Shown: positions 2,577 to 29,871 of the stretch, one piece after another | How positions within the stretch are numbered: position 1 is the stretch's first letter | Layout of the letters: the number at the start of each line of letters is the position of its first letter | DNA from: Nemertoderma westbladi | Taxonomy: Eukaryota; Animalia; Xenacoelomorpha | Assembly (NCBI GenBank): GCA_032718475.1 | Contig: JAUCBJ010008313.1 | Coordinates: forward strand, 193,771 to 257,770 | DNA length: 64,000 nt | Direction of reading: 5' to 3' | Notes under the pieces: generated by a model | Databases searched by the model: none | Seen by the model: only the letters and a program-made list of their open reading frames with translations | What the model was told of the DNA's origin: nothing | Made by a program: the position numbers and the translations under genes

Positions 2577-2931
2577 TATTTAGATAAGACATAATAACGC
2601 GCAATGACATTTAGATAAGGAAAATAAAACGCCCATATATTTGAATTCATCCATTTTGTATAGTATGTAGCCCTACCTACGTAATTTTGTAATAGGATAT
2701 AAGTAAATAGTTCCAGGGTAGCAAGTTTCCTGTTGGACGCTGGATATAAGCTTGCTGTTATTAGCCTCAATATCGCTAGCTATGTATTGGTCTTAATTTT
2801 CTTTATAATTGCGCTAAATTAATCTTTGTGCATCATATTATTAGTACCGCTAAATTAAGCATCGCCAAAATTACCATATATGGTAATAATTTGTGATTTC
2901 GGGAGCGAGAGGTTCACAATCCAGCTTCCTT

Positions 2932-3028
2932 ATTGGCCTAACTGCTTCCAGGTTGGACTAATGGTAGCGCGGATTGGGGAGCCAATGAGAGAGCGATTGC
3001 ATCATCCTCCATGAATCACCTATAAATA
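2932..3028 (+). promoter_or_regulatory. LTR promoter: CCAAT boxes and TATA box
   Basis: ATTGG at 2932-2936 and 2973-2977, CCAAT at 2982-2986, TATAAATA at 3021-3028; conserved in all three LTRs. AATAAA at 3786 and 3920 are candidate poly(A) signals. Confidence 0.6.
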
Positions 3029-5643: not shown

Positions 5644-8600
5644 ATGAGTATCTCAGAGAAAGAGGCACTAGAGGACAGCTATGAGACGGCGGCTGGACCG
5701 CCGACTGACGATAGTGTTAATATTACTGTTGACGACAATGCTGACTATGACGACGCAGCGAGCGACGCTGACATAAGTGAACAGGAGGATGAGACAGTAA
5801 CCAGTGAGGAAGAGCAAGGTGAGCGAATAGTATTAGGATCCCCTACCACTACTGTAAGGAAGGATTGTACAACAGCCCGACCAGAGGTGAGTGATAGGGA
5901 GAGTAGTTTAGCAGAAGCGAGAGCCCAGAGCCCGGTTTCCAGACCTGTGGGTATGGTAAGTGCCGTGGTCCCAACGGCTATAAGGAGTACCCGTAGTTCC
6001 CGAAATAATCCTTCAAGTCCACCAAGTGTGAGTCAGGTAAGCGAGAGAGAACTAGACATCGCGATAAAGAAGAAACTTCGCGCGCATGCCGGACATATAA
6101 CCCGGACGACGGACAAGGTAAGGAAGATGCTAGCCGACTCAGCGAACATCGGAAGGGAAGGGTTAGTAGAGATTAGAAGGGGATACAACTCAGCATTATT
6201 CAAGAAGACGGAGGAGCTTGCAGTCCTAGCGAAGAGAGCAGTGGAGTCTCAGTCGAGCGACATGGCGACGAGGGTTTACGATAGGGTTTTAGCAGCCTTG
6301 TTGGAGCACCGCACGTTATCGGAGCGATTCCGACGAGTTAGGACGGAGAACTGGCTGCTATGGGAATCACAAGCGCAGGTGACTCAGGTGAGTGACGCAG
6401 AGTTGAGAAACTTAGTGGAGCGGGAAGAGACGCAGGATAAGGAAGAGCGCAGGTATCAGAGGGAAGTTACCAGCTGGCTGATGCAGAGTGGAGTGGTGGT
6501 ACCGGGTCAGGTGCTGCCGACGATGGACAATATCCAACAGAGGACATTAACTCCACCCGACAATGCATCTAGAGACAGTGGCGATTCCCAGGTTAGTCAC
6601 GCACGAGGGAAGGTTATGTGCTAGATCCCTTGTTTCTCACAACTCGGCGGAGGAGAGAAGACGCCGACTGGACGAACAACAGGCGGAAGTTTTGCGTGCA
6701 TCGGAAGCACGGAAGGAAGCCGAACGGGAACGAGAGCGCACACGGAAGTTAGATGCACAGTTGCGAGAGTTGGAAGACAAAGGTAAGTGTGAGCAAGCCG
6801 AACGCGAACAGGAAGAACGCGAACTCCAACTCGAACGCGAACGCGAAGAACGCGAACTCCAACTCGAACGTGAACGCGAAGAACGCGAACTCCAACTCGA
6901 ATGCGAACGCGAAGCCAAGGAACGCGAACAAAGAAGACGCGAACTCCAACTCAACGCGAGCGTAGGAGCGCAAACTAGAGCGCGAGAGGGAGCGACGCGC
7001 ATTGTATGAAGAGAAGGCGCGTGTGGAAGAGGAGAGCGCAGCGAGACGAGCGAGGGAAGAAGAAGAACATAAATTGGCGCAGTTGGAAAGTGCGAGATTA
7101 AATTTAGAGAGCGAAAAATGGACCAGGAAGGCGAATGAAATCGCCGAGAAGGGGATGCGAATGATCGAAGAATGTGGGGCGAGTGTAGGTACCGAGTTGC
7201 GAGAACTGTTCGCACTGCAGAAGGCTGAACAGGAAGCGAAAACTCCGACTATATGCGAGTCGATGACGACCAGAATTCCTATACCCAGTCCAGCTATTAC
7301 GAGTACTCGGATCACTAAACCGTTCTCTACATATCGCACGCCAATTGGTATTAGTGCTTCACCCATCGCGCAGGATCCACGTCATCAGGACACCGCACCA
7401 CTACACACCGAACGAGACAATGAAGTGTTTAGAGGAGAAACTCAGACGGGCCGAGTATTGGGCGAACCGAACCCGCGGGTTTGGAATACATGGACGGAGC
7501 GCTGACCAGTTCGACGGAGAACTTCCGGGTTAAACCGGAAGAGTGATCATATGAGAGACAGCGGATTACTCAGATAGAGCCGACTATACAACAGAACCCT
7601 AGCCAGGAATTTATTACGAGGGATGAGTTAAGTGCCAGTTTAGCGCAAGCTATATCGCCGCACATCCAACCTATAACGGACATGCTTAGTAACCTACAGT
7701 TAAAGGAAGCAGCCCAGGTAAGAAGTAATTCAAATCCTAGCAGGCCTGGGTTAGATAAAGTCCAACCTAGTCAACGAGTACGCATATCGGAGGCAACTAT
7801 ACCACATAGACCTCAGGTAAGAACACCTGTCCCTACAATTTATAATCCCAACTTCGAGAACTCGGCGGAAAAGTTTATACAAGAAGCCTGGGTCAGGGCT
7901 TCGGCGCGCAAACCAACGCGAGTGCTAAGGACTGACACAGACTCAAGCGATGAAGAGGAAGACATGAGACGTTAGAAGAAGACATGAGTACGACAGCACC
8001 TTTACTCCCAATGAGAAGTTCAACTATTTGCTTCAAATGAGCCATTGCTGACAACTTCGTCGACAATGAAAGAGCATTCGAGTTAGCAATGAAGACGCTT
8101 AGCGACATCTACGGGAATAAAACCAAGATGGCACAGTCGATAGTGGAAGACTTGGGTAAGGGCGGAAGGATTACAACTCCGCTAGAGCTGTTGAACTTAG
8201 CGAACGCTATTTCGAACGCATTAGACATCTTGAGGATGGTGAATCTACCTCATCATGGTGATCACGCCGAAGTTTTGAAGAGCATAATAAGACGTTTAAA
8301 CATGCGTTACCGACAGAAATGGTGCAAATTAGAGAATAAATTAGAGGGTCAAGGTAAAGTGTTGACACTTCAACATATCCATGACTTGATAGCCACAGAC
8401 GCAGTAGCAGAGATGAAATCAAACTTCTCAGAGGAGAATATGAGAGAGTCTAAACCTGTTACCGGTAAGACTATGGTAAGTTTTGACGATGACATGACCA
8501 CTGTGACATTTAACTCAGTAGACAGATATAATTCGAGTACCCCTGCCTTTAGATCAGACTCACGAGTATGGTCAGGTGAGCGGTTAGATAGACCTAAGTT

Positions 8601-9015
8601 AAAGCAACAGGAGTTGCCGGTTGGATTTGTAGGTTGCCAATTCTGCGTACTAAAGGAGGTAAGATCTGACGACCATAAGTTAGACAGTTGCAGACGGTTC
8701 AAAGAATTAACTTCGGAACAGAGAAGAGTTCAAGTGCGGACATTGGACACCTGTTGGGCATGTCTTGCGCCAGGTCATGTACGGCGGCAGTGCCCGAACA
8801 GTAAGGACGGATGCATGGAATGCGGCAGACTACTTCACAAGTTGCTACATGTGGATTTCCATACCCCAACGGAACGTTACTTACAGAGAAATCCTCAAAG
8901 GAATGGGAGCAGAGATCCCATATCGATAAGGAGAAATACGTACACTGGCATCCAGGACGATGGTTATCAACCAGGTTCGTCGGCGAGGATGGTGAGTCGA
9001 GCGCGAGAGAGGTGA
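5644..9015 (+). pseudogene. gag: Bel/Pao gag (copy 1), frameshifted: acidic N-terminus, coiled-coil E/R repeats, DUF1759-like capsid region, three Cys/His knuckles
   Basis: ORF pieces 5644-6624, 6563-7009, 7002-7505, 7682-7975 and 8089-9015; CQFC..H...C, CWAC...H...C and CMEC...HKLLH knuckles are typical of Bel/Pao. Confidence 0.9.
6814..6955 (+). repeat. 33-bp coding repeat (ERELQLERERE)n in the gag coiled coil
   Basis: gaacgcgaactccaactcgaacgcgaacgcgaa, about 4 copies. Confidence 0.85.
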
Positions 9016-9069
9016 CCTGCCAAGGTTTCACTGCGGATAGTTCATCGACCAGCGCGCGGACGTATTTAT

Positions 9070-9620
9070 CATCGGCCACGTCGGAGATATTTAACGTCAT
9101 TCCGGTGAAACTTACTGGCGATAAGGGATCGAAGAGAATATATGTGATGTTGGACACTGCGTCCACATTATCTTATATCGACGAGGAAGTGGCGAGAGCT
9201 GTTTCTAGTTTCCAGGACACAGAGGAGATCCAAATAGAGTTAAAGTCCATGCACGGGGTAGGGGACCTCAAGGGACACAGAATTTCGGTAGAACTAGACT
9301 CCCTACCTCCAAGAGACCAGCACATCGACAAGAACGGAGAGCGCTGCCATTGGACGGATTTAAGTGTCTAGCTATGAAGGGGTTCGGCAGGCAGTTAGGT
9401 AAGGTGCCACCGATGAGTCCCATAGCACAGGAGTAATTTGACAAGCTCAAAGTACCGAGACACCAGGTAGGTTATAGGAATGTTTCTATGTTGGTTGGTG
9501 CAGAACAGCTGATCGCACACCAAATATGGGAAATGAGACCAGCTGAGCCGCACGTAAATGGACCACATGCCCATAGGACTATATTAGGTTGGTATACACG
9601 AGTACCCATGTCTTATGAGT
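9070..9620 (+). pseudogene. Bel/Pao aspartic protease (copy 1), frameshifted
   Basis: IPVKL..IYVMLDTASTLSYI (catalytic D at 9153) ... MLVGAE ... GPHAHRTILGW. Confidence 0.85.
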
Positions 9621-10059
9621 TTACAGGTGGCGACAAGCCAAAGGATAGATACAACGGATTACAGCCTATAACTCAACCACCGTTAGTAGAACCACCAGAC
9701 ATAGACGAGTTTAGGAGAACCTGTATTGACCACTATAGTGACATTAGCGAGTCGGACTAGGAGTTGATTCCCGATAATGTTAGGTTGTCGGAAGCACTCT
9801 ACAATGACTGGACAGATAGTGAACCCGAGGACTACTGTTATCAGACCTGTGGGTCTGGTTCAGCGGCCCACGCTACCTACTTGAGTAACGTTTTGACTTA
9901 TACCAATATAGTGGAGGGTCAGGTGGCTAAATATCGAGACCTCGACATTTTCCAATACAGTGAGGAGGAGTTGCAGAAGGAATTGATACGCCAGGACCTC
10001 GAGACAGGAGCCAGAACCGTCGAATGGCTGGATAGGGACGCAATGGAACCCGGTGGGTA

Positions 10060-11240
10060 TGACCTAACCATGTCCACTGATGAGAAACGGTCGCTAGAGA
10101 TGATGGAAGACACCATACGTCTGCTACCGACAGGACATTTTGAAGTTGGAATGTTGTGGCGTCGACATCCACCTAAGTTGGAGTACAACTACAGCTTAGC
10201 CTTGAAAAGATTGAACGGAGTAAGGGCAGGGTTGTTAAAGAATCCAGATGTTAGGGAGAAGTATTGCGCCCAGATCAACAACTATTTCGCAAAGGGATTT
10301 GCTGGGAAGGTAGAGGACCCGGAATTAGTGATGGACCAGACTTATTACCTCCCACACCACTATGTGACTCCCACTATGTGACACCCTGACAAGCCAGACA
10401 AAGTCCGAGTAGTCAACGACTGCGCAGCAGTCTATAGAGGCATTACCCTGAATTCAGAGTTGATGGACGGTCCCAACCTGAATAATTATTTGATAGGAAT
10501 ACTGTTGCGTTTTAGACAGCGGCGATTCGCGTTTACTTGTGACATCGAGGCAATGTTCCACCAGGTAAGAGCCTGTAAGGCAGACCAGGATAGCCTCAGA
10601 TTTCTCTGGTACGAGAATGAAGACCTATCCGGCCCAGTGGTTACATACCAAATGTATGTTAGGATATTTGGTGCCAACGATAGTCCAAACGGCACGCTGT
10701 TTGTTCTAAAGAAAACGGCAACAGCCCAGATTGGTAAGTATCCAGTAGAAGTTATCGAGTCCATCTTGAGAAACTTCTATATGGACGACGGATTGGTGTC
10801 CAAGGACACAGCTGAACAAGCCATAGAAGTGGCTCACGGCCTACAGGAGTGCTTGGCTACAGGGGGATTTCCTCTGACCAAGTTCACTACTAACTCGGAG
10901 GCCCTATTAGAATCGTTCCCGGTGAAAGGTCGCGGGAGCGGAGACATAGAATTGGGGGTAGAACCCATCCCCATGGCGCGAGTACTGGGACTCGCTTGGA
11001 ACCCGAACATGGACAAGTTACAGGTAAGAGTTAGATTTGAGCCCAGTAGTCCAGACAAAATTTTGACTAAGAGAATCTGTTAGTCGACATTAAGTAGACT
11101 ATTTGACCCGATAAACTTTATCAGTCCGGTAATATTACAGGCACGAGCGTGCATGAGGAAAATTTGGTTGTCTGACTTAGAGTGGGACGAACCAATATCT
11201 TCTATACATGCAAAGCAGTGGAGAGAGTGGGAAGCCGAGT
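10060..11240 (+). pseudogene. pol: Bel/Pao reverse transcriptase (copy 1), with stops and frameshift
   Basis: GHFEVGMLW, YYLPHH, KVRVV.DCAA, GPNL, DIEAMFHQV, FGANDSP, FYMDD (10778-10789), VLGLAWN, FDPI. Confidence 0.92.
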
Positions 11241-11299
11241 TGCATCTATTGAAAAATATAGATGTACCCCGCTCCTACTTTCCGAATCAGCTGGTATTT

Positions 11300-11800
11300 C
11301 CAGCTGATCTAGAACTGCACCTGTTTAGTGACGCAAGTGACACCGGCTTTGGTATGGTAGCCTACCTTCGCCAAGAGGTAAGTCAGGACAAGTTTGAGAC
11401 GGCCTTTGTGACTTCTAGATCAAAGACAATGCCGGTCAAATACATGACTGTCCCTCGTGCAGAGTTACAGGAGGCAGTAGTTTCAGTCGAGGTAAGTAAG
11501 CAGATAATAGAGGAGTTAGACACGACATTGACCTTATTCTATTGGACGGACGCATCCTTAGTGTTAGTATACATTGCAGCCGACAATATTGCACTAAAGA
11601 CATTTGTGGCCAAAAGACGCGCTCAGATCGTCGACTTTTCGACGAAGGAACAATGGAGACATTGTCCGGGAGTGTTAAACCCGGACGACATAACTTCGAG
11701 AGGTGCTATGCCGGCGGAATTCTGTCAGGAAGAGTTTTGGTTGCATGGGCCTGATTTTCCAACGAGGACACAGGAACATTGGCCAGAGCGACTGAAGATA
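11300..11800 (+). pseudogene. pol: Bel/Pao RNase H (Peptidase_A17-type) domain
   Basis: ELHLFSDAS..GFG.VAYLR, TVPRAEL, YWTDAS.VL.YI, WRHCPG.LNP.D..SRG, WLHGP. Confidence 0.9.
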
Positions 11801-11875
11801 GTGACCAATCCGATGCCAGAGGATGCAGAAGTCAAAGTGGAGAAAGTCTCTAAGTCAAAGTCTAAAGCCAAACTC

Positions 11876-11960
11876 AAGTCATTGGAGCGGCCTGAAGAGT
11901 CATTGGAGCGGCCTGAAGAGTCATTGGAGCAGCCTGAAGAGTTATTAGAGCGGCCCGGAG
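11876..11960 (+). repeat. 21-bp in-frame repeat (SLERPEE x4) in the RNase H-integrase linker
   Basis: gtcattggagcggcctgaaga repeated about 4 times. Confidence 0.85.
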
Positions 11961-12539
11961 ACCTGTCAGACCTACAGACTTACGTGACGACTAGGTCTGG
12001 AAGGGTAAGTTGTGACATAAAACCACCATTACAGACTACACCAGGGTCACAATTGGTAAGTGACGGACAGAAAATGACCGACACAATGGAGCCTTTGGTT
12101 TCCAAACCTGCGGGTTTGGATTCGAAACTTCTATTAGTTAGCGGACAACCGTTGCTGGCATTAGAGCCATGTAGTATTTATGACAAATATCTAAATTTGT
12201 CCGCCTCTTGGCTGACAATTTGTAAAAGAACTGCGTGGTTAAGCCGATGCGTTTTGTACCTTTGTTTAAACCATTCGAAACAATTAGAAGAACAAATGAG
12301 CACTAATAGTGAGCAAATTCAGAAATTGAAACAACCTCTGACAGAGGATGAGATTGATCAAGCGGAATTAAAGCATTTGAAGCATTATCAAATGTGTGCC
12401 TTCCCAAAAGAATTCTATCTATTATCGGCTCAACAACCAGTTCTCTATAAACCCCTTAGAAAATGGAGTCCATTAATCCATAAGGCTTTAATTTGTCATA
12501 GATCGAGAATCCAGACTGTCGACATAAACTCACAGTTTA

Positions 12540-13750
12540 GGTTCCCAGTGATAATCCCTAGTCACCCAATAGAATTGCAAAGAGCGATTCTATGGGATAT
12601 ACACAAGAGGTTGCATCACGCGGGAAAGTTACACTGTTTGTCGGCAGCGAGACAGCGATTCATTCTATTGCAGCCAAGCAGAGCAGTAGGCACTATGTAC
12701 GACGCCTGTCTGGTTTGCAAGAGAGTGAACGCCAGAGTATTGGAACAGGAGATGGCTTAACTCCCGGAAGCGAGAGTGCAGGCATATGACCCACCCTTTA
12801 CAAATACAGGGGTGGACTGCTTTGGTCCGACTGAGGCAAAGAGTGGACGGCTGACCCACAAGCGATGGGGCCTGCTACTGATATGCATGGCTAGTAGAGC
12901 CATACATATCGAGCATGTGGCAGACATGTCGACCAAATCTCTGCTCCTGGCCTTAAAGAGATTTATGGCCAGGAGAGGACTAGTAAAGGCGTTTTACTCT
13001 GACAAGGGTACTAACTTTGTCGGAGGGAATAGCGAGTTAAACGCGGCTCACAGGGTGGCGCAGAATAGAGAAATTTCTGCAGCACTTTTGCCGCAAAGAG
13101 TAGAGTGGCGATTTAACACTCCAGAAAGTCCTTGGAGAGGAGGAAGTTGGGAGCGTTTGGTTCGTTCCATAAAGCAGGCTATTGCTAAGACGTTGCCTGT
13201 AAACAAACAACTTACCGACGACGAGCTGGTCACAGCTTTCATCGAAATCGAGCATACACTAAACTCGAGGCTGATAGCTATGTTACCAGACGGTGTTGCT
13301 TTAACGCCGAATCATTTGCTAATGCAGAGTCCAGCATTTCTTGTGCCGGCATCAGAACCCATTAGTGCCGACCTATACAGTCGTAAGAGCTGGAAAATAA
13401 CACAATTTGTCGCGTACACATTCTGGGAATACATATCCATATCCACCAGATCGAAATGGTACAAAAAGATTTGGAGCCTCCAAAGAGGAGACTATGTATT
13501 GATAACTGAACCCGTTGTCAAGAGAAAATATTGGGAAACAGGTGTCATCTTGCACATACACCCAGACGTGCAAAATATAGTGTGCACAGTCACTGTGAAA
13601 ATTAGGTACAAGTGTCCGCACCCAAAGAAGTGTAAAACTAATGGTTTACACACCTTGGACTGACCGTTCCAAGATATCGTGTTATTAGAAGAGACACGCA
13701 TCGAGACAGGAGATTATAATTTGTCTCCTGCCTCAAACCAAAATTAGTGT
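12540..13750 (+). pseudogene. pol: Bel/Pao integrase (HHCC, DDE core, DUF5641-like C-terminus), with in-frame stop at 12758
   Basis: IHKRLHHAG...CLVC; PFTNTGVDCFGP; C..SRAIHIE; SDKGTNFVG; PWRGGSWERLVRSIK; LTPNHLL; GDYVLI. Confidence 0.92.
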
Positions 13751-14479
13751 TGGACGCATCTCACTTCGTATGCATTCCTCGTATGCAAATACTAGGAAAT
13801 GCATAGGAGCGGGTTTGCGGTGATTTGCGTGAGAATTTGTCTGGTGGGTATCAAAATAAAATTTTATTTTCAAAATTTTTGGAAAATTAAAAAATTTAAA
13901 AAATTAGAAGTGAACCCAAGACAATTCCAAATGCTGTGTATAGACGCGTTTTAGAATTCGTCTATAGAGATACAGTAATTTGAAAAGTCGTGAAGCCTGG
14001 AAAATAGCATTTAGAAACCATGGTGAAGGCTATATTACATAGGAGTGTAAATTGAGTTTAGCAATTTCCACAGATTGGTGCCAACAGTACAACAACCAAG
14101 GTGCTAAAGGTTAGTAGCACCAGAGGCGTACACGGACCCCACTCAGTAGTTTGCAGTGAAGTGAGATGTTCGATTATCAAACCTGCGGGTTTGGTATAGT
14201 CGAGCACTGAGACTATTGTCCTTTCTAACTACTGTAGTTTAGTACAAGTAATGGGAGTAGTTTGGGCATCAAAAAGTGAGTTGGTCACGGCCAGTTTATC
14301 TCCAAAGTTTTGCGCTATGCATGGGAATTGGTTAGAGGATAGTTAGGAATGAGACGGGATCTAGAGAGTCGAATCTGAACTGCTGGAAGGCGGGGGGGTT
14401 CGGGAGGTCTGTCCTTCGGCGGCATCTAACTGATTTACCCACAGTGTAATTAGTTACGTAACGGACCCTATTGGGATAT

Positions 14480-17400
14480 ATGTATGTATATACGCGGCTT
14501 ATAATGGAGAAGGAAATTAGAGCTCAACTGCGGAGAGGATTTACTGCCAGAGAGGAGGCGGAACTACCATTTGCCCGACCCGGGTGCAAAGACTCGAACG
14601 TTTACTACCATGGGAGGTCGGTAATGGAATTGAATAGGAAGTATAAACCCGCGTATGATAAAGAATTGAGGAGGGAAAGAATGAGAGCGTTGGGAGACCG
14701 TATGGAAGTTTTGCGGAAGGAGTATCGCACTCGGTATCCCTACGATTTTGCGTTAGACGTATGCGACATTAGTGCAGACCCGGACGAGGAGATCGCGCGG
14801 CTGTACCATATGAACATGTTTTTACGACACGACGAACCTCTACCTGCAGTCCGAGATCAGTTCGACGGAATGCATCTGTACCGGAGGACTCGAGGCAAGG
14901 ATCAAGAGACGCCAAAGGTCTTCAGTGTATACAAGTAGTTCTACAAATGTGGTGAATGCATGAATAAACAAGACGTGGCGATTCCCGATCGACTGGACAA
15001 GCAACATCCTGAACCGATATTAACGCGATGTCAAGCTCACCAGTTCCTTAGATACAACGAGGGAGGTTACCCAATGAGCAACCCGATGATCAGTATCGAC
15101 TTCAGCGGAAAGCGACCTCCGAGACCCATTACGCCGACCATTACGACATTAGATCCATATACGGAGATTAAACCCTGTTCGACACCCAGTTTGATAGAGA
15201 CGTCAGCGGCCATTTCGCTATACCGAGCCTATAAGGACCTAGAGGCGCGGCGCGAAGCGGCACGGGACTCGGGAACCAAACCCGCGGGTTTGGAGCTCTC
15301 GAGTCCCTGGACTACGTTTACTTCGCCTCACCGAGCGAGAAATCTCACGCCTGAGCATCAGGACGACATAGACGCGTTGCGGCAGGAGGATCGAGCGGCG
15401 AAGGCGAAACAATTATTCGAAGAGCGGGTAGCGGAGTATAATAAGACCGCGGATGACATCAGGAGGAGACGAGGAGAGTGACCGGATTTGTTCCACAGGC
15501 CGTATCTCAACCCCGAACGGTGTATTATTCCGACGGCAACGAACCTGCAATATTGGTAGATCACCCAGAGTCGCGAGAAGCGATTAGATTCTTGCCGATG
15601 GTGAGGATGTCGGATCATTGGAACGTCGAATGTCTACGGGAAGTTTTATGCGCGAAGTTCTTGCGTGATGTCCCGATGCAGATCACAGACTACGACACGC
15701 TTGACAAGATTGGAGCTCCGGGAAAGGAGAGCAAGTTGTTTGGATGGTTGGATAAGTACATAAAGGTATGGGTCGCGGTGGCTACATTCCCAGACGATGA
15801 GGAGGTAGACCAGACGTGGCTGAGGAGAAAGGGTTCTTACACCCGATATGATGACCACAAGGCTATCGAGCGCATGTGGGTGGACCCCATCCCATCCGAC
15901 GAGATTCAGCGTCAGTGGAGGAAAACGGAGGAATCACTACAGGATTGGAGAGTGATGTTCTACGACAATGAAGGAGGTTCTCATCAAGAATGCTTAACTA
16001 GCAAGTGCATTCAAATTCGCACGGCAGATGGTGTGACTCATGTGTTTATGCGCGTAAGGGCGGACCGAGAGAGACTGGAGCCCATAATAACGACACAATA
16101 TCGTAAAGGGAAGGATCCCAGAGAACAGATTTTGGAGGTATGCAGGCGAGGAGGTATGCACGGAGCGGGGCGTATCGACGCCAGGATGCTACCCAAGAAG
16201 GTTAGAGAGGCGATTCTCAACCAAGATTACGTCAAGGTGGGATCGGGAGTCCAGAGCGATTTGGAGAGTGACTTCAACGCCATGACTGATTTGGAAGATA
16301 GATTGCCGAGACCGTTTGTCGACACCAAGCTATTGTTGCTATGGGCACAGGATATTGGAATTTATAGGGAGTATCCCAACTCTGCCAAGACTGGTTTGGG
16401 TTTCATAGCGCATTTGTTGTATAATTGGGACTTCAAGTTGAAGATGCAGAAGAGATACGAGGAGGCGTATGGTGAATATAACACGCCACCGGGAGCGGAG
16501 TTCAAATCCCACTTCAAGCGGCAAGCGTTAGTGTATTGGAGCATCTGCGCGCCACCCTGTGTGTCACTGCAATATTATTTGGTGCTTGAGTCGAACACGG
16601 TAACTTGTTTATTAGCGGATATAGTTGCGCGAGTTTTGAAGCATCATCCATTGGTATTCGGAGGAGATCAATATGTTCACTTGAAAGGGGGAATCCAATC
16701 TGATGTGATGAAGCGTTTCTTAACCCCGTTCTTCAACCAATCATTAGAGAATACGTCGATGGTTAGGAGAGGATTAGCGATATTTGAAGGAATATATCGA
16801 CAGAACATCGGAGATTTGGGAGACCGACCGTCGATGGAGTATCCGACGCCAGAGGCCTTGGAGAAGTGGTTCGGGAATCAAACCCGCGGGTTTGGTACTC
16901 CCTTCCACTCGGAGGCTGATAGACCTGTTAGAGAGGGTTGGCCGGAGATGTTAGTAGAGGTATTCGGAGTGGATCTTCCGGTGGAGAAGACATATGAACG
17001 CGGGAGGAAATATTGGAGATAGAGGACAAGGGCGAGGATGTTTACTTTGTTCCGGATCGACAACCTCTGACCGGAGAGGACGACAACATATTAGACATTG
17101 GGAAAGAAGGAACTGCGAAACCGATTGGAGACCTCATATATGAGGGGGCCTGGTTTCCACAAGCGCGTAGGTGCAAGTTGTGCGGCAGCACAAGGCACAA
17201 TCAAAAATCAAGTGACGCAGTAGTAGAGGCGGCGCATAAGGTCTGCCGTTGGTGTAATGAGACCGACCATTCGTTTCATACGTGCACCGTCTTCATTTCT
17301 CAATGTGGATATTGTGGGGTAAAGGGACATCGTAGCGCGAGATGCCAACTGCGAGACGATTCCTTCCAAAACCATAGCGCCAACCTACTTCGGGAGATGC

Positions 17401-18205: not shown

Positions 18206-18730
18206 TGCAAGCGTATCATGGAGCGACAGACTCTAGATATATACATCATCGTCGCTCTGATGTATATTGTAGCATTTTTGTAAATATCCGACTGGACTCA
18301 TATATACTAGTTGTAATAATTTGAATTTATATTATGAGAGAGGCGAAGGAGGTGATTGGGGAGACAAACCTGCGGGTTTGGCTTACTCGTTTCACCTACC
18401 CTAGCAAGTTTTATAGAGAAAGCAGTATTTTTATAAATTTAATTTGTATGTAGTAAGTAGTAATCATTATGTAGAACGAACGAGAAAGCAATATTTTTGT
18501 AAATTTAATTTGTATGTAATAATCGTTGACATTGAAAGAGATAATATTTTGTAAATTTAATTTGTATGCAATCCATTATGCAATATCTATGGCAATATTT
18601 GTAAATAGTAGAATTATTATAGTATCAAGTTATTTAGATTATTTGAAAGCAAATTTATTTTGTTTTGTATACATCGCCCTATACTCTTCTACAATTGGAG
18701 GGAAACATTGCTTGATTTCACTTGGAGCGG

Positions 18731-20968
18731 TGTTACGGTATATGGCGCTGTACCTACATTAGTCCGTTATACAGTATAATATATTAGCCGTTATACAGTA
18801 TAATATATTAGCCGTTATACAGTATAATATATTAGCCGTTATACAGTATAATATATTAGCCGTTGTACAGTATAATTATTTAGATAAGACATAATAACGC
18901 GCAATGACATTTAGATAAGGAAAATAAAACGCCCATATATTTGAATTCATCCATTTTGTATAGTATGTAGCCCTACCTACGTAATTTTGTAATAGGATAT
19001 AAGTAAATAGTTCCAGGGTAGCAAGTTTCCTGTTGGACCCTTGATATAAGCTTGCTGTTATTAGCCTCAATAGGGCTAGCTATGTATTGGTCTTAATTTT
19101 CTTTATAATTGCGCTAAATTAATCTTTGTGCATCATATTATTACTACCGCTAAATTAAGCATCGCCAAAATTACCATATATGGTAATAATTTGTGATTTC
19201 GGGAGCGAGAGGTTCACAATCCGGCTTCCTTATTGGCCTAAATGCTTCCAGGTTGGTCTAATGGTAGCGCGGATTGGGGAGCCAATGAGAGAGCGATTGC
19301 ATCATCCTCCGTGAATCACCTATAAATAGGCGGTATTTCCGGTATGTGCTTTGTAATTCTTTGTAATTTGTAACCCTAGTCGTAATTTAGACTAATTATT
19401 CTGTATTTTGCGTATTTCTGCCTTTTCCAATTATTTCTTGTAATAATTTTGCTAATTTGTAATCTCTGCTGATTTCTTGGTGTGTTTCTCAATCAATCCC
19501 AATGATTACTGTTAATTACAACTGGAACTATGATTTCTACCCTTTAGTTGATGGTTCTATGTGATTCCTTTCGATGCAATAATCCCACGGGATTTTCTTA
19601 GACTGTCAGACTTTGTGATTTGCATGCGCCGTTACGGTAGCTACCCATTAGATGGAGGGCTGAGGTACCGGTAGGCGCGGCGGGCGCATCGGGGGGTTAG
19701 CGACGAAGGGAGTGCGGAGAATTCAAAGGCAGGCAACGCTGGCGGGGAGGTCACCGTTTCGGTCGGTCAGTTAGTATTGTAGAGTGAAGACCGCTCGCTG
19801 GTACAGTAATTAAGGGCTGATGATCCAGATTTTGTCTCTATTATGTAGTATTAGGGGGGCAGGAATTGGGTTAGTTAGGAAGCCTAGATGTACCCGGGAG
19901 AGGCCTGCGTGCTTTATATTGCGAGCTAAACTGTAGACTACGTCGCAAACTACTTGCGAAATGTAGATTGCGAGTTGTGAACTGTGAATTGCTGACTGCT
20001 GATTGTGAATTGTGCATTAAGAACTATAATTGGTAAGTATAAACTATTGATTGTTACGCTGATTGGTGTGTTACTAAAGTGTGCCTAATAAATCACGAAT
20101 GCTTAGATAGGTGCTCTTTTCCCTTTGATTGATTTCTATTTCTTAGTTTACTATAAATAATTACTGATTAGGTCGAAAATAATACGGTATTTGGACTGTT
20201 ACTAGTGCAACCTGTTACGTAATAAATTAGAATTACGCATTCTGGAACACTTAGTAATTAGTACGCTGTTGCATATTTGTGACTGTAATTAATTAGTAAA
20301 ATTAAGAATTTGTATGCAGCATAGTGGAGAGTAGTTAAGGTAATAATTTGGAGTACAGTAAACTATTCACTCTGGGCGGTTATTTGAAATCAGCGGGCAA
20401 TAAGTTAGATCGCAGTATCTAGTACGCAGCACGCATTAGTAAATTGCTGGCCTAAAGCCAGCCGGAGGCAAGTTTAGTCCCATAGTAGGTATCATTCCCT
20501 GATATAAAAACTGTACCAATTTTTTGATTATTTAAATATTCTCACATTCACATTCTGTTAGGGAACCCCAGTATTTGCGATTAGAAAAGACGTAATTATT
20601 AGCGCGTTTTAACAGTAAAATTAGGCCATAAGAATACACTCTGAGTGTAAAGCCTCTCACACTCGTCTTAAGTAAGCTTAGGGAGCCGATTCGGGTTTAT
20701 TGTTTTGGTTATTCCCGCGTGGCTCATATGTTCGAACAGTTAGCTCTCTATCGAGCAATCGGTAGAGAAAGGAACAAGCGATTAGCAGGAGCCGTAGAAA
20801 ATTAGTAAAATATATTAGCGGACGGCAGGTTAGCGCCATCCAACAGTAAGTAGCGGTTTTGTATTTAGCAGCCCTACAGTAGTAATAGCACGCTCCTGAT
20901 TACCCCTGTTTAACAGTAGAGCAGTCTTTGTGTCTTTATTGGTTAGGCAGGGACCCGCTAGTTTAACA
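18731..20968 (+). repeat. LTR 2 (shared middle LTR, 2238 bp)
   Basis: TGTTACGG...GTTTAACA, preceded by the element's 3' UTR (..cttggagcgg) and followed by the same 5' leader as LTR1; no TSD on either side. Confidence 0.95.
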
Positions 20969-22031
20969 GTAAAGCGCGTTATTTTGTTTTGCTGTACTGC
21001 GTACAGTAAGACAAAGTGTATTTTTAGGCTGTTAGGTTAGATTACTGTATTCACTAGTCGCAATACAGTAGTACAGTAGTGCATTAGGCTGATTGCTGTT
21101 ACTGCGTACGGTAGAAAAGACATTTGTTTTGCTGTACCACATACAGTATTCATTAGGCTGTTAGCTTGGTGTACTATTTTACTCACTGTACTGTGTACAG
21201 TGGATGTACGGTAGTGTGTTTACTAATCGCAAATACAGCAGTTCATTAGGCCGTTAAGGCAAGCTGTAATTAGTAAGTTTTTGAAAATTTTAGCTAGGTT
21301 TGTGAGAATTCAGTTTTGTTCAAAATTATTTTGTAATAAAATCTAGAGTTTTGTACCGGTATGTTAGATAACCGCTTAGTTGTTTTATACCATCTGGAGA
21401 TACATGGCAAGACAGAGCTTCTGAGTTTGGGGTTCGTGTGGGACTGCGGGTTCGGTTTGCAATCAGCGAAGAGCCTGAAACTTTGGACACTGCCGTGGAA
21501 TCTCACAGCAAACAAGGTTAGTTGTTCTGTTGGCACCATTGTGTTTGCGGAAGCAGTATAAAATTACCGGTTGTTTAACTGCGAAGCTGAACTCAATTTA
21601 TTAGTTAGGTTAGTTAGGTTTAGCCGACCATGGTTTTTTGAATCGTTCAAGTTAGAGAGAGAGAGAGAGAGAGAGTCGCAACCCGAAGGTGTAGCCACGC
21701 GCAAGTGGATACATATAATATTTGAAATTAAAATTGCGTTGATTAGAGCTATATATATAAAATTAGAAATATTTGGGTGGCAAGTTCATTTTTGAATATT
21801 TTGAATTAGATTCAGAAATTATTTTGTGTCATACCGGTATTTAAATGCTATATAATAGCTATGGAATAAGATTTTTTCATTATATTCACAATATTGTATT
21901 GCGAATTTATTTGACATTTTGTGACCAACTAATTATTTGACAAATAATTTAATCGTATTTTCGATTAAATTATATATATATCTCGAATTTTTTGCGAGAT
22001 TTTGGCCGGAAGGCAAAATATTATTTAGACT

Positions 22032-25000
22032 ATGAGTGTCTCAGAGAAAGAGGCACTAGAGGACAGCAATGAGACGGCGGCTGGACCGCCGACTGACGAT
22101 AGTGTTAATATTACTGTTGACGACAATGCCGACTATGACGACGCAGCGAGCGACGCTGACGTAAGTGAACAGGAGGACGAGACAGTAATCAGTGAGGAAG
22201 AGCAAGGTGAGCGAATAGTATTAGGATCCCCTACCACTACTGTAAGGAAGGATTGTACAACAGCCCGGCCAGAGGCGAGTGATAGGGAGAGTAGTGTAGC
22301 AAAAGCGAGAGCCCGGAGCCCGGTTTCCAGACCTGTGGGTATGGCAAGTGCCGTGGTCCCAGCGGCTATAAGGAGTACCCGTAGTTCCCGAAATAATCCT
22401 TCAAGTCCACCAAGTGTGAGTCAGGTAAGCGAGAGAGAACTAGACATCGCGATAAAGAAGAAACTTCGCGCGCATGCTGGACATATAACCCAGACGGCGG
22501 ATAAGGTAAGAAAGATGCTAGCCGACTCTGGTAACATCGGAAGGGAAGGGTTAGTAGAGATTAGAAAGGGATACTACTCAGCGTTATTCAAACAGACGGA
22601 GGAGCTTGCAGTCCTAGCAAAGAGCGCAGTGGAGTCTCAGTCGAGCGACGTGGCGACGAGGGTTTACGATAGGGTTTTAGCAGCCTTGTTGGAGCACCGC
22701 GCGTTATCGGAGCGATTCCGACGAGTTAGGATGGAGAAATGGCTGCTATGGGAATCACAAGCGCAGGCGACTCAGGTGAGTGATGCAGAGTTGAGAAACT
22801 TAGTGGAGCGGGGAGAGATGCAGGATAAGGATGAGCGCAGGTATCAGAGGGAAGTTACCAGCTGGCTGATGCAGAGTGGAGTGGTGGTACTGGGTCAGGT
22901 GCTGCCGACGACGGACAATATCCAACAGAGGACGTTAACTCCACCCGACAATGCATCTAGAGACAGTGGCGATTCCCAGGTTAGTCACGCGCGAGGAAAG
23001 GACGCGTAAGAACGCCTGTCCCTACAATTTATAATCCCAACTTCGAGAACTCGGCGGAAAAGTTTATACAAGAAGCCTGGGTCAGGGCTTTGGCGCGCAA
23101 ACCAACGTGAGTGCTAAGGACTGACACAGACTCAAGCGATGAAGAGGAAGGAACGTCAGAAGTCCCAAAACCATAAGGAAAGAAGGACCGACGCGGAGCA
23201 GGTAAGTTTGAACCACCGGGAAAGGACCAGACTTAATAACCCTGCAGAACTAAACCATTTGTTAACCCGGAACGACGCAACCCTTAGAGACATAGGTAAG
23301 TTTGCCGCTAGGCAAGGACTGCCAACGCAACAACCCCAGAAGTTTATGGGTAACCATAAACATTGGAGGACGTTCAAAACCTATGTCGACGAACAGCTGA
23401 CCAACAGCACCTTTACTCCCAACGAGAAGTTCAACTATTTCCTTCAAATGCTCCATCGAGAACCTAGAGCCATTGCTGACAACTTCGTGGGCAATGAAAG
23501 AGCATTCGAGTTAGCAATAAAGATGCTTAGCGACATCTACGGGAATAAAACCAAGATGGCACAGTCGATAGTGGAAGACTTGGGTAAGGGCGGAAGGATT
23601 ACAACTCCGTTAGAGCTGTTGAACTTAGCGAACGCTATTTCGAACGCATTAGACATCTTGAGGATGCTGAATCTACCTCATCATGGTGATCACGCCGAAG
23701 TTTTGAAGAGCATAATAAGACATTTAAACATGCGTTACCGACAGAAATGGCACAAATTAGAGAATAAATTAGAGGGTCAAGGTAAAGTGTTGACACTTCA
23801 ACATATCCATGACATGATAGCCACAGACGCAGTAGCAGAGATGAAATCAAACTTCTCAGAGGAGAATATGAGAGAGTCTAAACCTGTTACCGTTAAGTCT
23901 ATGGTAAGTTTTGATGATGACAGGACCACTGTGACATTTAACTCAGTAGACAGATATAATTCGAGTACCCCTGCCTTTAGATCAGACTCACGAGTATGGT
24001 CAGGTGAGCAGTTAGATAGACCTAAGTTAAAGCAACAGGAGTTACCGGTTGGATTTGTAGGTTGCCAATTCTGCTTACTAAAGGAGGTAAGATCTGACGA
24101 CCATAAGTTAGACAGTTGCAGACGGTTCAAAGAATTAACTTCGGAACAGAGAAGAGTTCAAGTGCGGACGTTGGACACCTGTTGGGCATGTCTTGCGCCA
24201 GGTCCTGTACGGCGACAGTGCCCGAACAGTAAGGACGGATGCATGGAATGCGGCAGACTACATCACAAGTTGCTACATGCGGATTTCCATACCCCAATGG
24301 AACGTTACTTACAGAGAAATCCTCAAAGGAAGGGGAGCAGAGATCCCGTATCGATAAGGAGAAATACGTACACTGGCATCAGGACGATGGTCATCAACCA
24401 GGTTCGTCGGACGAGGATGGCGAGTCGAGCGCGAGAGAGGTGACCTGCCAAGGTTTCACTGCGGATAGTTCATCGACCAGCGCGCGGACGTATTTATCAT
24501 CGGCCACGTCGGAGATATTTAGCGTGATTCCGGTGAAACTTACTGGCGAAAAAGGATCGAAGAGAATATATGTGATGTTGGACACTGCATCCACATTATC
24601 TTATATCGACGAGGAAGTGGCGAGAGCTGTTTCTAGTTTCCAGGACGCAGAGGAGATCCGAATAGAGTTAAAGTCCATGCACGGGGTAGGGGACCTCAAG
24701 GGACACAGAATTTCGGTAGAACTAGACTCCCTACTTCCAAGAGACCAGCACACTCGACAAGAACGGAGAGCGCTGCCATTGGACGGATTTAAGTGTCTAG
24801 CTATGAAGGGGTTCGGCAGGCAGTTAGGTAAGGTGCCGCCGATGAGTCCCATAGCATAGGAGTATTTTGACAAGCTCAAAGTACCGAGACACCAGGTAGG
24901 TTATAGGAATGTTTCTATGTTGATTGGTGCAGAACAGCTGATCGCACAGCAAATATGGGAAACGAGACCAGCTGAGCCACATGTAAATGGACCACATGCC

Positions 25001-25517
25001 CATAGGACTATATTAGGTTGGTATACACGAGTACCCATGGTATGGTAACGAGACCAGCTGAGCCGCATGTAAATGGACCACATGCCTATAGGACTATATT
25101 AGGTTGGAATACACGAGTACCCATGGTATACAGGTGGTGACAAGCCAAAGGATAGATACAACAGATTACAGCCTATAACTCAACCACCGTTAGTAGAACC
25201 ACCAGACATAGACGAGTTTAGGAGAACCTGTATTGACCACTATAGTGATGTTAGCGAGTCTGACGAGGAGTTGATTCCCGATAATGTTAGGTTGTCGGAA
25301 CCACTCTACAATGACCGGACAGATAGTGAACCCGAGGACTACTGTTATCAGACCCGTGGGTCTGGTTCAGCGGCCCATGCTACCTACTTGAGTAACGTTT
25401 TGACTTATACCGATATAGTGGATGGTCAGGTGGCTAAATATCGAGACCTCGACATTTTCCAAAACAGTGAGGAGGAGTTGCAGAAGGAATTGATACGCCA
25501 GGACCTCGAGACAGGAG
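22032..25517 (+). pseudogene. gag: Bel/Pao gag-protease (copy 2), internally deleted; RT, RNase H and IN absent
   Basis: ORFs 22032-23009, 23139-24443 (KFMGNHKHWRTF, EKFNYF, knuckles) and 24239-24859 (LDTAS). ~1.2-kb deletion at ~23002; ~4.35-kb deletion at 25517 joining copy-1 equivalents 10010 and 14365; ~87-bp tandem duplication at ~24961-25130. Confidence 0.9.
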
Positions 25518-25632
25518 AGAGTCGAATCTGAACTGCTGGAAGGCGGGGGGGTTCGGGAGGTCTGTCCTTCGGCGGCATCTAACTGATTTACCTGCAGTGT
25601 AATTAATTACGTAACGGACCCTATTGGGATAT

Positions 25633-28600
25633 ATGTATGTATATACGCGGCTTATAATGGAGAAGGAAATTAGAGCTCAACCGCGGAGAGGATTTACTGC
25701 CAGAGAGGAGGCGGAACTACCATTTGCCCGACCCGGGTGTAAAGACTCGAACGTTTACTACCATGGGAGGTCGGTAATGGAATTTAATGGGAAGTATAAA
25801 CCCGCGTATGATAAAGAATTGAGGAGGGAAAGAATGAGAGCGTTGGGAGACCGTATGGAAGTTTTGCAGAAGGAGTATCGCACTCGGTATCCCTACGATT
25901 TTGCGTTAGACATATGCGACATTAGTGCAGACCCGGACAAGGAGATCGCGCGGCTGTACCATAGGAACATGTATTTACGACACGACGAACCTCTACCTGC
26001 AGTCCGAGATCAGTTCGACGGAATGCATCTGTACCGGAGGACTCGAGGCGAGGATCAAGAGACGCGAAAGGTCTTCAGTGTATACAAGTTGTTCTACAAA
26101 TGTGGTGAATGCATGAATAAACAAGACGTGGCAATTCCCGATCGACTGGACGAGCAACATCCTGAACCGATATTAACGCGATGTCAAGCTTACAAGTTCC
26201 TTAGATACAACGAGGGAGGTTACCCAATGAGCAACCCGATGATCAGTATCGACTTCAGCGGAAAGTGACCTCCAAGACCCATTACGCCGACCGTTACGAC
26301 ATTAGATCCGTATACAGAGATTAAACCCTGTTCGACACCCAGTTTGATAGAGACGGCAGCGGCCATTTCGCTATACCGAGCCTATAAGGACCTAGAGGCG
26401 CGGCGCGAAGCGGCACGGGACTCGGGTACCAAACCCGCGGGTTTGGAGCTTTCGAGTCCCTGGACTACATTTACTTCGCCTTACCGAGCGAGAAATCTCA
26501 CGCCTGAGCATCAGGACGACATAGACGCGTTGCGGCAGGAGGAGCGAGTGGCGAAGGCGAAACAATTATTCGAAGAGCGGGTAGCGGAGTATAATAAGAC
26601 TGCTTTCTGGAGACTGGAGGAGACGAGGAGAGTGACCGGATTTGTTCCACAGGCCGTATCTCAACCCCGACCGGTGTATTATTCCGACGGCAACGAACCT
26701 GCGATATTGGTAGATCACCCGGAGTCGCGAGAAGCGATTAGATTCTTGCCGATGGTGAGGATGTCGGATCATTGGAACGTCGACTGTCTACGGGAAGTTT
26801 TATGCGCGAAGTTCTTGCGTGACGTCCCGATGCAGATCACAGACTACGACACGCTTGACAAGATTGGAGCTCCGGGAAAGGAGAGCAAGTTGTTTGGATG
26901 GTTGGATAAGTACATAAAGGTATGGGTAGCGGTGGCTACATTCCCAGACGATGAGGAGGTAGACCAGACGTGGCTGAGGAGAAAGGGTTCTTACACCCGA
27001 TATGATGACCACAAGGCTATCGAGCGCATGTGGGTGGACCCCATCCGACGAGATTCAGTGTCAGTGGAGGAAAACGGAGGAATCACTACAGGATTGGAGA
27101 GTGATGTTCTACGACAATGAAGGAGGTTCTCATCAAGAATGCTTAACTAGCAAGTGCATTCAAATTCGGACGGAGGATGGTGTGACTCATGTATTTATGC
27201 GCATAAGGGCGGACCGAGAGAGACCGGAGCCCATAATAACGACACAATATCGTAAAGGGAAGGATCCCAGAGAACAGATTTTGGAGGTATGCAGGCGAGG
27301 AGGTATGCATGGAGCGGGGCGTATCGACACCAGGATGCTACCCAAGAAGGTTAGAGAGGTGATTCTCAACCAAGATTACGTCAAGGTGGGATCGGGAGTC
27401 CAGAGCGATTTGGAGAGTGACTTCAACGCCATGACTGATTTGGAAGATAGATTGCCGAGACCGTTTGTCGACACCAAGCTATTGTTGCTATGGGCACAGG
27501 ATATTGGAATTTATAGGGAGTATCCCAACTCTGCCAAGACTGGTATGGGCTTCATAGCGCATTTGTTGTATAATTGGGACTTCAAGTTGAAGACGCAAAA
27601 GAAATACGAGGAGGCATATGGTGAATATAACACGCCACCGGGAGCAGAGTTCAAATCCCACTTCAAGCGGCAAGCGTTAGTGTATTGGAACATCTGTGCG
27701 CCACCCCGTGCGCCACTGCAATATTATTTGGTGCTTGAGTCGAACACGGTAACTTGTTTATTAGCGGATATCATTGCGCGAGTTTTGAAGCATCATCCAT
27801 TGGTATTCGGAGGAGATCAATACATTCGCTCGAAAGGGGGAATCCAATCTGATGTGATGAAGCGTTTCTTAACCCCGTTCTTCAACCAATCGTTAGAGAA
27901 TACGTCGATGGTTAGGAGAGGATTAGCGATATTTGAAGGAATATATCGACAGAACATCAGAGATTTGGGAGACCAACCGTCGATGGAGTATCCGACCCCA
28001 GAGGCCTTGGAGAAGTGGTTCGGGAATCAAACCCGCGGGTTTGGTACTCCCTTCCACTCGGAGGCTGATAGACCTGTTAGAGAGGGTTGGCCGGAGACGT
28101 TAGTAGAGGTATTCGGAGTGGATCTTCCGGTGGAGAAGACATATGACCGCGGGAGGAAATATTGGAGATAGAGGACAAGGGCGAGGATGTTTACTTTGTT
28201 CCGGATCGACAACCTCTGACCGGAGAGGACGACATCGTATTAGAAATTGGGAAAGAAGGAAGTGCGAAACCGATTGGAGACCTCATATATGAGAGGGCCT
28301 GGTTTCCACAAGCGCATAGGTGCAAGTTGTGCGGCAGCACAAGGCACAATCAAAAATCATGTGACGCAGTAGTAGAGGCGGCGCATAAGGTCTGCCGTTG
28401 GTGTAATGAGACCGACCATTTGTTTCATACGTGCACCATCTTCATTTCTCAATGCTGATATTGTGGGGTAAAGGGACATCGTAGCGCGAGATGCCAACTG
28501 CGAGACGATTCCTTCCAAAACCATAGTGCCAACCTACTTCGGGAGATGCTAGATAAGTGGGAGGGTGTGGCCGATTACCACATCCAAGCGCAGATGCGTT

Positions 28601-29353
28601 GGTTACCGTTTAAAGCAGGATACAGATTTTGGGCAGTAGACCCATCAAACGTTGCGTATGAGCCGTATCTACAGTCGTTACCACAATATCAGGAGCTAAT
28701 ATTGACCGCTCAAGATCTTCCGCAGAACACTGGAGTCATCGGGAATACTTCAGACAGTTAAACATGGATAACAAATATACTTGGAACTTTGTTGCTATTT
28801 GCGACCGTATAACGAAAGGTCTATTTTTGGAAACTAGAAAGGTGGTGCGCGCGCGAGGAGATTGGAGGATGGCGGCTATACAATACCGCAACGAGTTCCT
28901 ATTGACTCACGTACCGGTGGGGTCATTGACTGCTGAGAGGATCAAGGAACAGCGAACTGCAGCGCCCACAGCGACAACGTTGGAGCTCAAGGCTTGCGGA
29001 GAGAACCAGGAGGAGAAGTCCAAGACAAGCGTCAAGTCAAGGACGACCACTATCATTCAATTATAGAGGCACAATGATTACAGCGCAAGGCGCAAGGCGC
29101 GTCCGAGAAAGCGCGTGTGCAATTGCAGAAGGAAGAGTTGGCGGAAGCGACCACAGGAGCACGACAATTGGGACGAGGCCGAGGGAGAAGCACCAGCCGG
29201 GAATCAGTCGGGGCTCAGGGAACATCGTCGCCGGTTCCGGGGAGTGACGCCTCACGGACGCCGTCAACAGAGTCTACAGGGGGTAGACTGGTATATCTGG
29301 GAAGGGGGCGGAAGAGAGGAGCGAGCCCGAAGAACCCAGGAGCGGGTCGGTAA
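25633..29353 (+). pseudogene. Accessory exonuclease/CCHC ORF (copy 2)
   Basis: Near-identical to 14480-18205 with mostly different lesions (TGA 26266, 4-bp deletion ~27041, TGA 28456). Confidence 0.75.
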
Positions 29354-29871
29354 TGCAAGCGTATCATGGAGCGACAGACTCTAGATATATACATCATCGT
29401 CACTCTGATGTATATTGTAGCATTTTTGTAAATATCCGACTGGACTCATATATACTAGTCGTAATAATTTGAATTTATATTATGAGAGAGGCGAAGGAGG
29501 TGATTGGGGAGACAAACCTGCAGGTTTGGCTTACTCGTTTCACCTACCCTAGCAAGTTTTATAGAGAAAGCAGTATTTTTGTAAATTTAATTTGTATGTA
29601 GTAATCATTATGTTGAACGAACGAGAAAGCAATATTTTTGTAAATTTAATTTGTATGTAATAATCGTTAACATTGAAAGAGATAATATTTTGTAAATTTA
29701 ATTTGTATGCAATCCATTATGCAATATCTATGGCAATATTTGTAAATAGTAGAAATATTATAGTATCAAGTTATTTAGATTATTTGAAAGCGAATTTATT
29801 TTGTTTTGTATACATCGCCCTATACTCTTCTACAATTGGAGGGAAACATTGCTTGATTTCCCTTGGAGCGG

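Follow-up and report, generated by a model that had tools for sequence, protein, structure and literature searches.

Why should one 16-base near-palindrome recur along the internal region of a retrotransposon, in coding and non-coding sequence alike? This question is raised by a window of 64 kb of Nemertoderma westbladi DNA (the whole stretch analysed; contig JAUCBJ010008313.1, assembly GCA_032718475.1, forward strand), which holds two tandem copies of a BEL/Pao-type long terminal repeat (LTR) retrotransposon. To our knowledge, the selection of their own RNA by LTR retrotransposons other than Ty1 and Ty3 is largely unknown. In this study, it was concluded that the motif array is real and family-specific and probably works at the RNA level. 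The favoured reading, to which we give a probability of roughly 0.55, is that the 16-mer represents a reiterated stem-loop tip of the sense RNA, bound by a zinc-knuckle protein encoded by the element itself. This reading draws on modelled folds and on analogy with retroviral nucleocapsid (NC) proteins.

With up to three mismatches allowed, the 16-mer has 10 matches in the window, whereas 100 shuffled sequences gave a mean of 0.25 and a maximum of 1, and none of them reached 10. The motif is present at all nine positions reported in the first-pass annotation and also at 25349. Copy 1, for which six sites had been counted, contains eight (5940, 7468, 9842, 12103, 14178, 15277, 16879 and 18365). 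The two extra sites, 5940 and 9842, were recovered by a relaxed scan, and their copy 2 orthologs lie at 22328 and 25349. A covariance model scored all 13 window sites at 26–36 bits on the + strand and the best other place at 12 bits, the ten sites used for training scoring high by construction. The sites are as follows.

5940–5955, + strand: site 1, degenerate; loop TGTG, one stem mismatch; gag N-terminus; same in copy 2
7468–7483, + strand: site 2; loop CGCG, one stem G.U pair, flanks that do not extend the stem; gag
9842–9857, + strand: site 3; loop TGTG, two-sided A-U to G-C stem change; poorly conserved linker between protease (PR) and reverse transcriptase (RT)
12103–12118, + strand: site 4; loop TGCG; Pol, between RNase H (RH) and integrase (IN)
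14167–14206, + strand: site 5 (16-mer at 14178–14193); loop TGCG in this copy, predicted extended hairpin; intergenic
15261–15309, + strand: site 6 (15277–15292); loop CGCG, predicted extended hairpin; accessory open reading frame (ORF)
16854–16917, + strand: site 7 (16879–16894); loop CGCG, predicted extended hairpin; accessory ORF
18348–18400, + strand: site 8 (18365–18380); loop TGCG, predicted extended hairpin; 3' untranslated region (UTR)
22328–22343, + strand: copy 2 ortholog of site 1
25349–25364, + strand: copy 2 ortholog of site 3; loop CGTG
26430–26445, + strand: copy 2 ortholog of site 6
28028–28043, + strand: copy 2 ortholog of site 7
29513–29528, + strand: copy 2 ortholog of site 8; loop TGCA, the sole G>A seen

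The copy 2 sites at 26430, 28028 and 29513 are all there as described, except that 29513 carries a G>A change in its centre. No match was found in the three LTRs or anywhere else in the window outside the element, as had also been noted. Five to six of the eight copy 1 sites are in coding sequence, where the motif is read in three frames, as had been observed (PNPRVW at 7468, KPAGL at 12103 and 15277, QTRGF at 16879). The pol sites coincide with non-conserved protein segments: 9842 falls within an unaligned linker, and the Pol stretch around 12103 has no counterpart in the alignments of 31 long relatives. The gaps between sites measure 1099–2374 bases. Compared with random placement, both the smallest gap (1099 bases, p 0.0017) and the coefficient of variation (0.26, p 0.0009) indicate even spacing, which is significant with eight sites and not with the six first reported. 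The proposal of a family-specific constraint at the nucleic-acid level is supported.

Contigs carrying the 14178 site occur in four public runs belonging to four studies, and an assembly or adaptor artefact was therefore rejected. Half-sites are not enriched (right half, 3 against 1.8 expected), and a reader of single-stranded half-sites was dropped for this reason. A G/U-rich part of the leader (5040–5076) contains right half-sites at 5054 (exact) and 5062 (one mismatch) and folds at -20.3 on the + strand and -5.7 on the - strand; a further half-site is located at 13808.

The distribution of the motif was assessed in metagenomic BEL/Pao loci, of which 495 were confirmed and the best 80 used (576,521 bases; RT 39–46% identical); these 80 are 1–12 kb long, often incomplete and mostly from other hosts. 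In these loci, the covariance model found nothing below E 0.7, and hairpin tips recur at most twice per locus as against six times in this element. The exact motif occurs in viral contigs as 14 single matches, none resembling the element, and these were taken as chance.

Loop variation and predicted hairpins

Departures from a CGCG centre comprise eight C>T changes and one G>A change (29513) when each site and position is counted once, with both copies and the family variants at 14178 taken together (p 0.02 one-sided, 0.04 two-sided). The background decay is symmetric between the strands: C<->T and G<->A differences number 21 and 33 between the accessory regions of the two copies, 7/6, 11/11 and 9/9 in the LTR pairs, and 88 places of C>T against 88 of G>A were found in run X1. 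At 14178, loop position 3 is T in about 99% of the family depth in runs X1 and X3 and in all of it in X4 and X5, so that this site is usually without CpG. A diverged subfamily has C at loop position 1 of the same site, and no variant of at least 2% affects either loop G or the 12 stem positions. The biased departures and the family variants at 14178 therefore define the centre as YGYG on the sense strand. Both loop guanines, G2 and G4, are kept in 12 of the 13 window sites, with G4 lost at 29513. The C-to-T variants had previously been ascribed to CpG decay of a perfect palindrome. This explanation is not supported, since the background is strand-symmetric, the centre is skewed 8:1 and 14178 usually has no CpG to lose.

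According to prediction, the 16-mer would be the tip of a hairpin in the sense RNA, with a 6-bp stem and a YGYG tetraloop. In the alignment of ten sites, 94% of cells are paired, a share reached by 11 of 500 shuffles, where the pairing structure was derived from the same ten sequences that were tested. The stem departures consist of four independent G.U cases, one replacement of A-U by G-C on both sides and occasional A.A, U.U or G.A oppositions, with no A.C. Between the two copies, stem positions differ at 0 of 60 compared with a background of 2.8%, which is weak evidence alone.

The sequences flanking the 16-mer also pair. When flank extension of the stem was compared with 300 random core placements at seven sites (5940 not among them), it was significant at 14178 (p 0.033), 15277 (0/300), 16879 (0/300) and 18365 (p 0.017). 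Among permutations that re-match 5' and 3' flanks of these seven sites, the native pairing ranked 5 of 5040 on the + strand and 19 of 5040 on the - strand. With eight sites and flanks of 10, 15, 20 and 30 nt, the ranks of 40320 were 1747, 94, 316 and 89 (+) and 5686, 250, 651 and 132 (-). On average, folding favours the sense strand (p 0.042; five of eight sites), for example at site 5 (-23.1 on the + strand against -11.8 on the - strand). Among all 66-nt windows in the internal region, those with the 15277 and 16879 hairpins rank first and second in stability, and four sites are outside the top 20.

In the 14178 region, just one variant of at least 2% lies inside the 34-nt inner helix, and pairing is retained as G.U with 14205 C>T and 14207 C>T, both common, as well as with the rarer 14206 A>G. 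A diverged contig shows 19 differences over 119 bases of this region, of which one is in the 34-nt inner helix, two are loop pyrimidines and 16 are in the other 81 bases (p 0.015, unlisted differences having been assigned to the ends). Among the matches listed, diverged contigs lose their match at 18335 and 18407, positions that bracket the 18365 hairpin, and a contig found in three runs matches 15231–15310 between two joints, which corresponds to the 15277 hairpin.

Other hairpin classes were also considered. MicroRNA hairpins were rejected because the conserved part is the tip and not the arms. UNCG/YNMG loops form a thermostable tetraloop class, and this identity was dropped because UGUG and CGUG states occur. 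Rfam gave no match in 2400–21000 (E<=1) or in 32100–64000 (E<=0.1).

Candidate readers and rival explanations

An NC-type ligand is the most likely reading in view of the fixed G2 and G4 on a sense-strand tetraloop and of the two knuckle proteins of the element. A zinc-knuckle protein of the element (Gag NC or the accessory protein) would bind the hairpins, the loop guanines 2 and 4 fitting the guanine pockets of a knuckle pair by analogy with the NC of human immunodeficiency virus (HIV) and Rous sarcoma virus (RSV). The hairpins might then serve as marks all along the long unspliced RNA, for its assembly into particles or its transport. In HIV, the GGAG and GGUG tetraloops are bound by NC at G2 and G4 (PMC7599994), and RSV NC binds a UGCG loop (PMC5035970). 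Gag and the accessory protein, both with Cys/His knuckles encoded, are the candidate readers. The accessory frame is as follows.

14462–17612, + strand: accessory ORF of about 1000 amino acids, three Cys/His knuckles towards the C-terminus; broken in this copy near 14936, 15460–15480 and 17000–17020

By eye, the central domain of the accessory protein appears DEDDy exonuclease-like, an assignment made from motifs. The central part has no match in Pfam or the PDB, and the same searches detected no DNA-binding domain in the ORF. In 1.84 billion proteins, the sole relative is P0121 (E 1.7e-7), which has a sub-threshold match to PF01612 (3'-5' exonuclease, E 0.2). The predicted folds of accessory-type proteins are of low confidence (pLDDT, the predicted local distance difference test, 32 and 31). 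The knuckle pair of P0121 finds HIV-1 NC as its top PDB match (E 1e-4) and aligns pairwise to the C-terminal piece of the window accessory protein (E 2e-6); for that piece by itself, the PDB gave no NC match. No accessory relative was found in metagenome contigs, in two word-index protein searches or in phages, and the viral contigs searched held no relative of P0121 or of the element's RT. The 80 BEL/Pao loci also lack one, an absence that is weak because just 7 of 64 integrase-matching loci extend more than 2.2 kb downstream. A second broken frame follows the accessory ORF (about 17615–18205) and ends in an RG-rich basic sequence.

A more tentative extension gives the accessory protein the leading part: with its exonuclease-like domain and NC-like knuckles, it might dock on the eight hairpins and coat the 16-kb RNA for export, transport or shielding from host RNA silencing, as an RNA-level counterpart of the sequence-specific anti-silencing by VANC that co-evolves with the motif. 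We regard this as possible and would not presume it.

Several observations weigh against the NC-type reading. The hairpins are predictions obtained by folding. Flank extension is not significant singly at 7468, 9842 and 12103 in the random-placement test, and 7468 is without any extension. The - strand folds better at three of eight sites, and the flank permutation tests are significant on that strand as well, as is expected of inverted repeats. The sites may derive from each other (seven of ten upstream bases are the same at 15277 and 16879, two to five in most site pairs), so that the 8:1 count is not fully independent, and family variation was read at a single site, 14178. At that site, a predicted outer pair is lost in the register of this copy through the common 14164 A>T, and one inner pair through 14175 T>A unless a bulge shifts. 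Three sites (7468, 12103 and 14178) are missing from copy 2 owing to two deletions, and, among the matches listed, one contig of run X2 skips the 16879 site. The strictly conserved stem sequence exceeds the need of an NC-type reading of the loop. In addition, the in vitro specificity of RSV Gag was not lowered when UGCG was replaced by GAGA (PMC5035970), and packaging was unaffected by swaps of the HIV GGAG loop (PMC7599994). As loop changes are tolerated in both viruses, the NC analogy does not fix the function.

The excess of stem conservation would be explained if the near-palindromic cores paired between genomic RNAs or within one RNA, giving a multi-point dimer or compaction that needs no specific protein reader. 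Every loop state (CGCG, UGCG, CGUG, UGUG and UGCA) is self-complementary when G.U is allowed, and every site can cross-pair with every other, so RNA contacts stay viable. The predicted 16-mer duplex (-22 to -29 kcal/mol) is more stable than two hairpins (-10 to -15), and precedents exist in Ty1 PAL1/PAL2, the HIV dimerisation initiation site (DIS) and stem-loops (SL) C and D of Moloney murine leukaemia virus (MoMuLV) (PMC6844567, PMC7599994). However, the dimer sites known so far number one to three and lie close to the 5' end, a long stem with a 4-nt loop makes a poor kissing partner, UGUG, the common state at 14178, gives wobble pairs only, and the weakest sites, 5940 and 9842, persist. We consider this explanation unlikely, while placing it ahead of the other rivals. 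The first-pass suggestion of RNA dimerisation or packaging signals comes close to the favoured reading. The same structural evidence would equally suit a host RNA-binding protein, Egalitarian-like or RNase III-type, that reads the hairpins for export, localisation or protection from decay. RNase III-type readers recognise NGNN tetraloops. Eight cuts in the genome RNA would be self-destructive, however, no Rfam family matched, and the motif is absent from the 80 other BEL/Pao loci, mostly of other hosts. The I-factor RNA does offer a parallel in a 40–65-nt stem-loop bound by Egalitarian, for which cooperative multi-element recognition has been proposed (bioRxiv 10.1101/2025.08.03.668247). A host reader comes next in our ordering and is also doubtful.

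A duplex-DNA site for a dimeric, possibly element-encoded protein with VANC-like anti-silencing activity had been the other early proposal. It would account for the near-perfect dyad symmetry and the family specificity, which resembles that of VANC motifs, and the even spacing would suit chromatin-wide action, while CpG decay suggests that the host methylates the element. But a loop bias on one strand, G.U-type departures and site-specific self-complementary flanks are meaningless in duplex DNA. The sites are mostly coding, none is in the LTR promoter, and the accessory ORF is without a detected DNA-binding domain. The DNA proposal is weakened in particular because the flanks differ yet are self-complementary with sense-fitting G.U, and because of the coding placement of five to six of the eight sites; we rank it third among the rivals, as improbable. 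Finally, the array might be a neutral by-product, a hairpin-prone sequence spread by RT template switching or gene conversion. Partial sharing of flanks between sites and their location in tolerant protein regions would agree with this, whereas the even spacing, the inner helix conserved in the diverged subfamily, flanks that differ and still pair and, with little weight alone, the unchanged stems between copies speak against it. Such an origin is very improbable.

Host element and remainder of the window

The host is a tandem of two copies with a common middle LTR (2431–32108), as judged from three LTRs of about 2.24 kb and one 5-bp target-site duplication around the whole. Its parts are listed below.

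2426–2430, + strand: left target-site duplication, 5 bases identical to 32109–32113
2431–4666, + strand: LTR 1, TG...CA, 2.24 kb, motif-free; the three LTRs differ by 1.8–2.4%
5641–9015, + strand: gag region, several broken frames; DUF1759 and Cys/His knuckles
8805–13663, + strand: pol (PR-RT-RH-IN), BEL/Pao, interrupted by stops and frameshifts
18731–20968, + strand: middle LTR, common to both copies, motif-free
29872–32108, + strand: LTR 3, motif-free
32109–32113, + strand: right target-site duplication, 5 bp

Assignment to BEL/Pao follows from the Pfam matches: Peptidase_A17 (E 4e-36), Integrase_H2C2 and DUF5641 on pol, and DUF1759 (E 7e-10 in copy 2) and zf-CCHC (E 0.019) on gag. The element thus has the Pao peptidase/RNase H region, a DUF1759 Gag, an integrase with DUF5641 and the order PR-RT-RH-IN, as well as TG...CA termini and a short target-site duplication. 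The closest RT relatives are 43–47% identical, the named ones belonging to echinoderms, cnidarians, crustaceans, a mollusc and fish. The coding frames are broken in both copies, and copy 2 is without part of gag and most of pol. Between LTRs, 13–22 of about 95 CpG sites differ, and this decay makes host methylation of the element likely. Family contigs were found in five public runs from four studies. Three of these runs contain thousands of short contigs 80–100% alike, read here as a multi-copy family with diverged subfamilies, in which depth does not equal copy number.

Some 1 kb of leader separates the LTR from gag, and the LTRs, at 2.24 kb, are long. A TGG-type primer-binding site does not immediately adjoin the LTR (4667–4700), nor does a clear purine tract precede the next LTR (18700–18730); the priming of this element may be unusual.

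Elsewhere in the window, a G-rich 18-base minisatellite with higher-order periods occupies 1–790. Six related units of about 95 bases lie at 36480–37280, several with a predicted UUCG-capped hairpin and no Rfam match, and downstream of them (37567–38711) are ORF pieces resembling a non-LTR element. Gene fragments of non-LTR reverse transcriptase/endonuclease were noted by eye at 40582–41346, 45241–47304 and 50875–51420. Inverted repeats with long G/C runs surround a palindromic stretch at 53272–54281, possibly a miniature inverted-repeat transposable element. A satellite-like array of units of about 455 bases extends over 55370–63700 and includes a 16-bp perfect palindrome in five or six units.

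Comparison with known systems

A full-text literature search, outside which most subscription papers lie, returned no reiterated hairpin array in BEL/Pao or any other LTR retrotransposon. Nothing was found on cis-acting RNA signals of BEL/Pao elements, and the top results on packaging concerned retroviruses and Ty1 only. With a near-invariant, evenly spaced hairpin and only two candidate element-encoded readers, the question lends itself to direct tests on short RNAs and small protein domains.

DEDDy accessory ORFs are already known from rotifer elements (PMC5408684). The bdelloid Juno and Vesta elements resemble the present one in carrying an extra 3' ORF (ORF3) with a 3'-5' exonuclease-like domain, which here was seen by eye and as the E 0.2 Pfam match. 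They differ in that the present host element is BEL/Pao and its accessory ORF, of about 1000 amino acids, includes a knuckle array; the terms hairpin and stem-loop do not occur in that paper (PMC5408684). If the proposed role is true, it would alternatively provide a function for the exonuclease/zinc-knuckle accessory genes carried by several retrotransposon groups. Arabidopsis VANDAL elements and their VANC proteins are similar in that a family-specific motif is repeated in an element encoding an extra protein. The VANC motifs, however, are 8–9 bp, non-palindromic and arranged in tandem non-coding arrays of a DNA transposon (PMC5735166), whereas the 16-mer occurs as single, dispersed, mostly coding copies for which single-stranded RNA is favoured.

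Ty1 PAL1/PAL2, the HIV DIS and MoMuLV DIS/SL-C/SL-D share with the tips self-complementary RNA and a hairpin-to-duplex switch (PMC6844567, PMC7599994), and an extended duplex is predicted here as well. Those palindromes present an exposed loop of about 6 nt, lie at the 5' end only and are not reiterated with one sequence, unlike the dispersed tips of this element with their 4-nt loops. The likeness to retroviral Psi (HIV-1 SL3 GGAG and SL2 GGUG; RSV uPsi SL-C UGCG) is an NGNG tetraloop with G2 and G4 on a predicted stem. The UGCG loop of RSV SL-C is one of the loop states of the element (PMC5035970), which, like retroviruses, encodes CCHC-type knuckles (PMC7599994). In contrast to the single 5'-leader elements of Psi, eight near-identical tips are spread over gag, pol, the accessory ORF and the 3' UTR. 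The first is in gag (5940), the leader has a half-site at 5054 and no full site, and the stem sequence is common to all sites.

Dispersed packaging signals of MS2, picornaviruses and hepatitis B virus are alike in comprising many genome-wide stem-loops with a common apical motif (PMC6281560), and the present element is likewise predicted to have several such stem-loops on the packaged strand. In those viruses the motifs are short and degenerate, whereas here a near-invariant 16-mer in an LTR retrotransposon was read from sequence alone. Recurrent hairpin tips provide a simple search recipe for other long elements, and, if the favoured reading is true, the dispersed packaging-signal model would extend from RNA viruses to retroelements.

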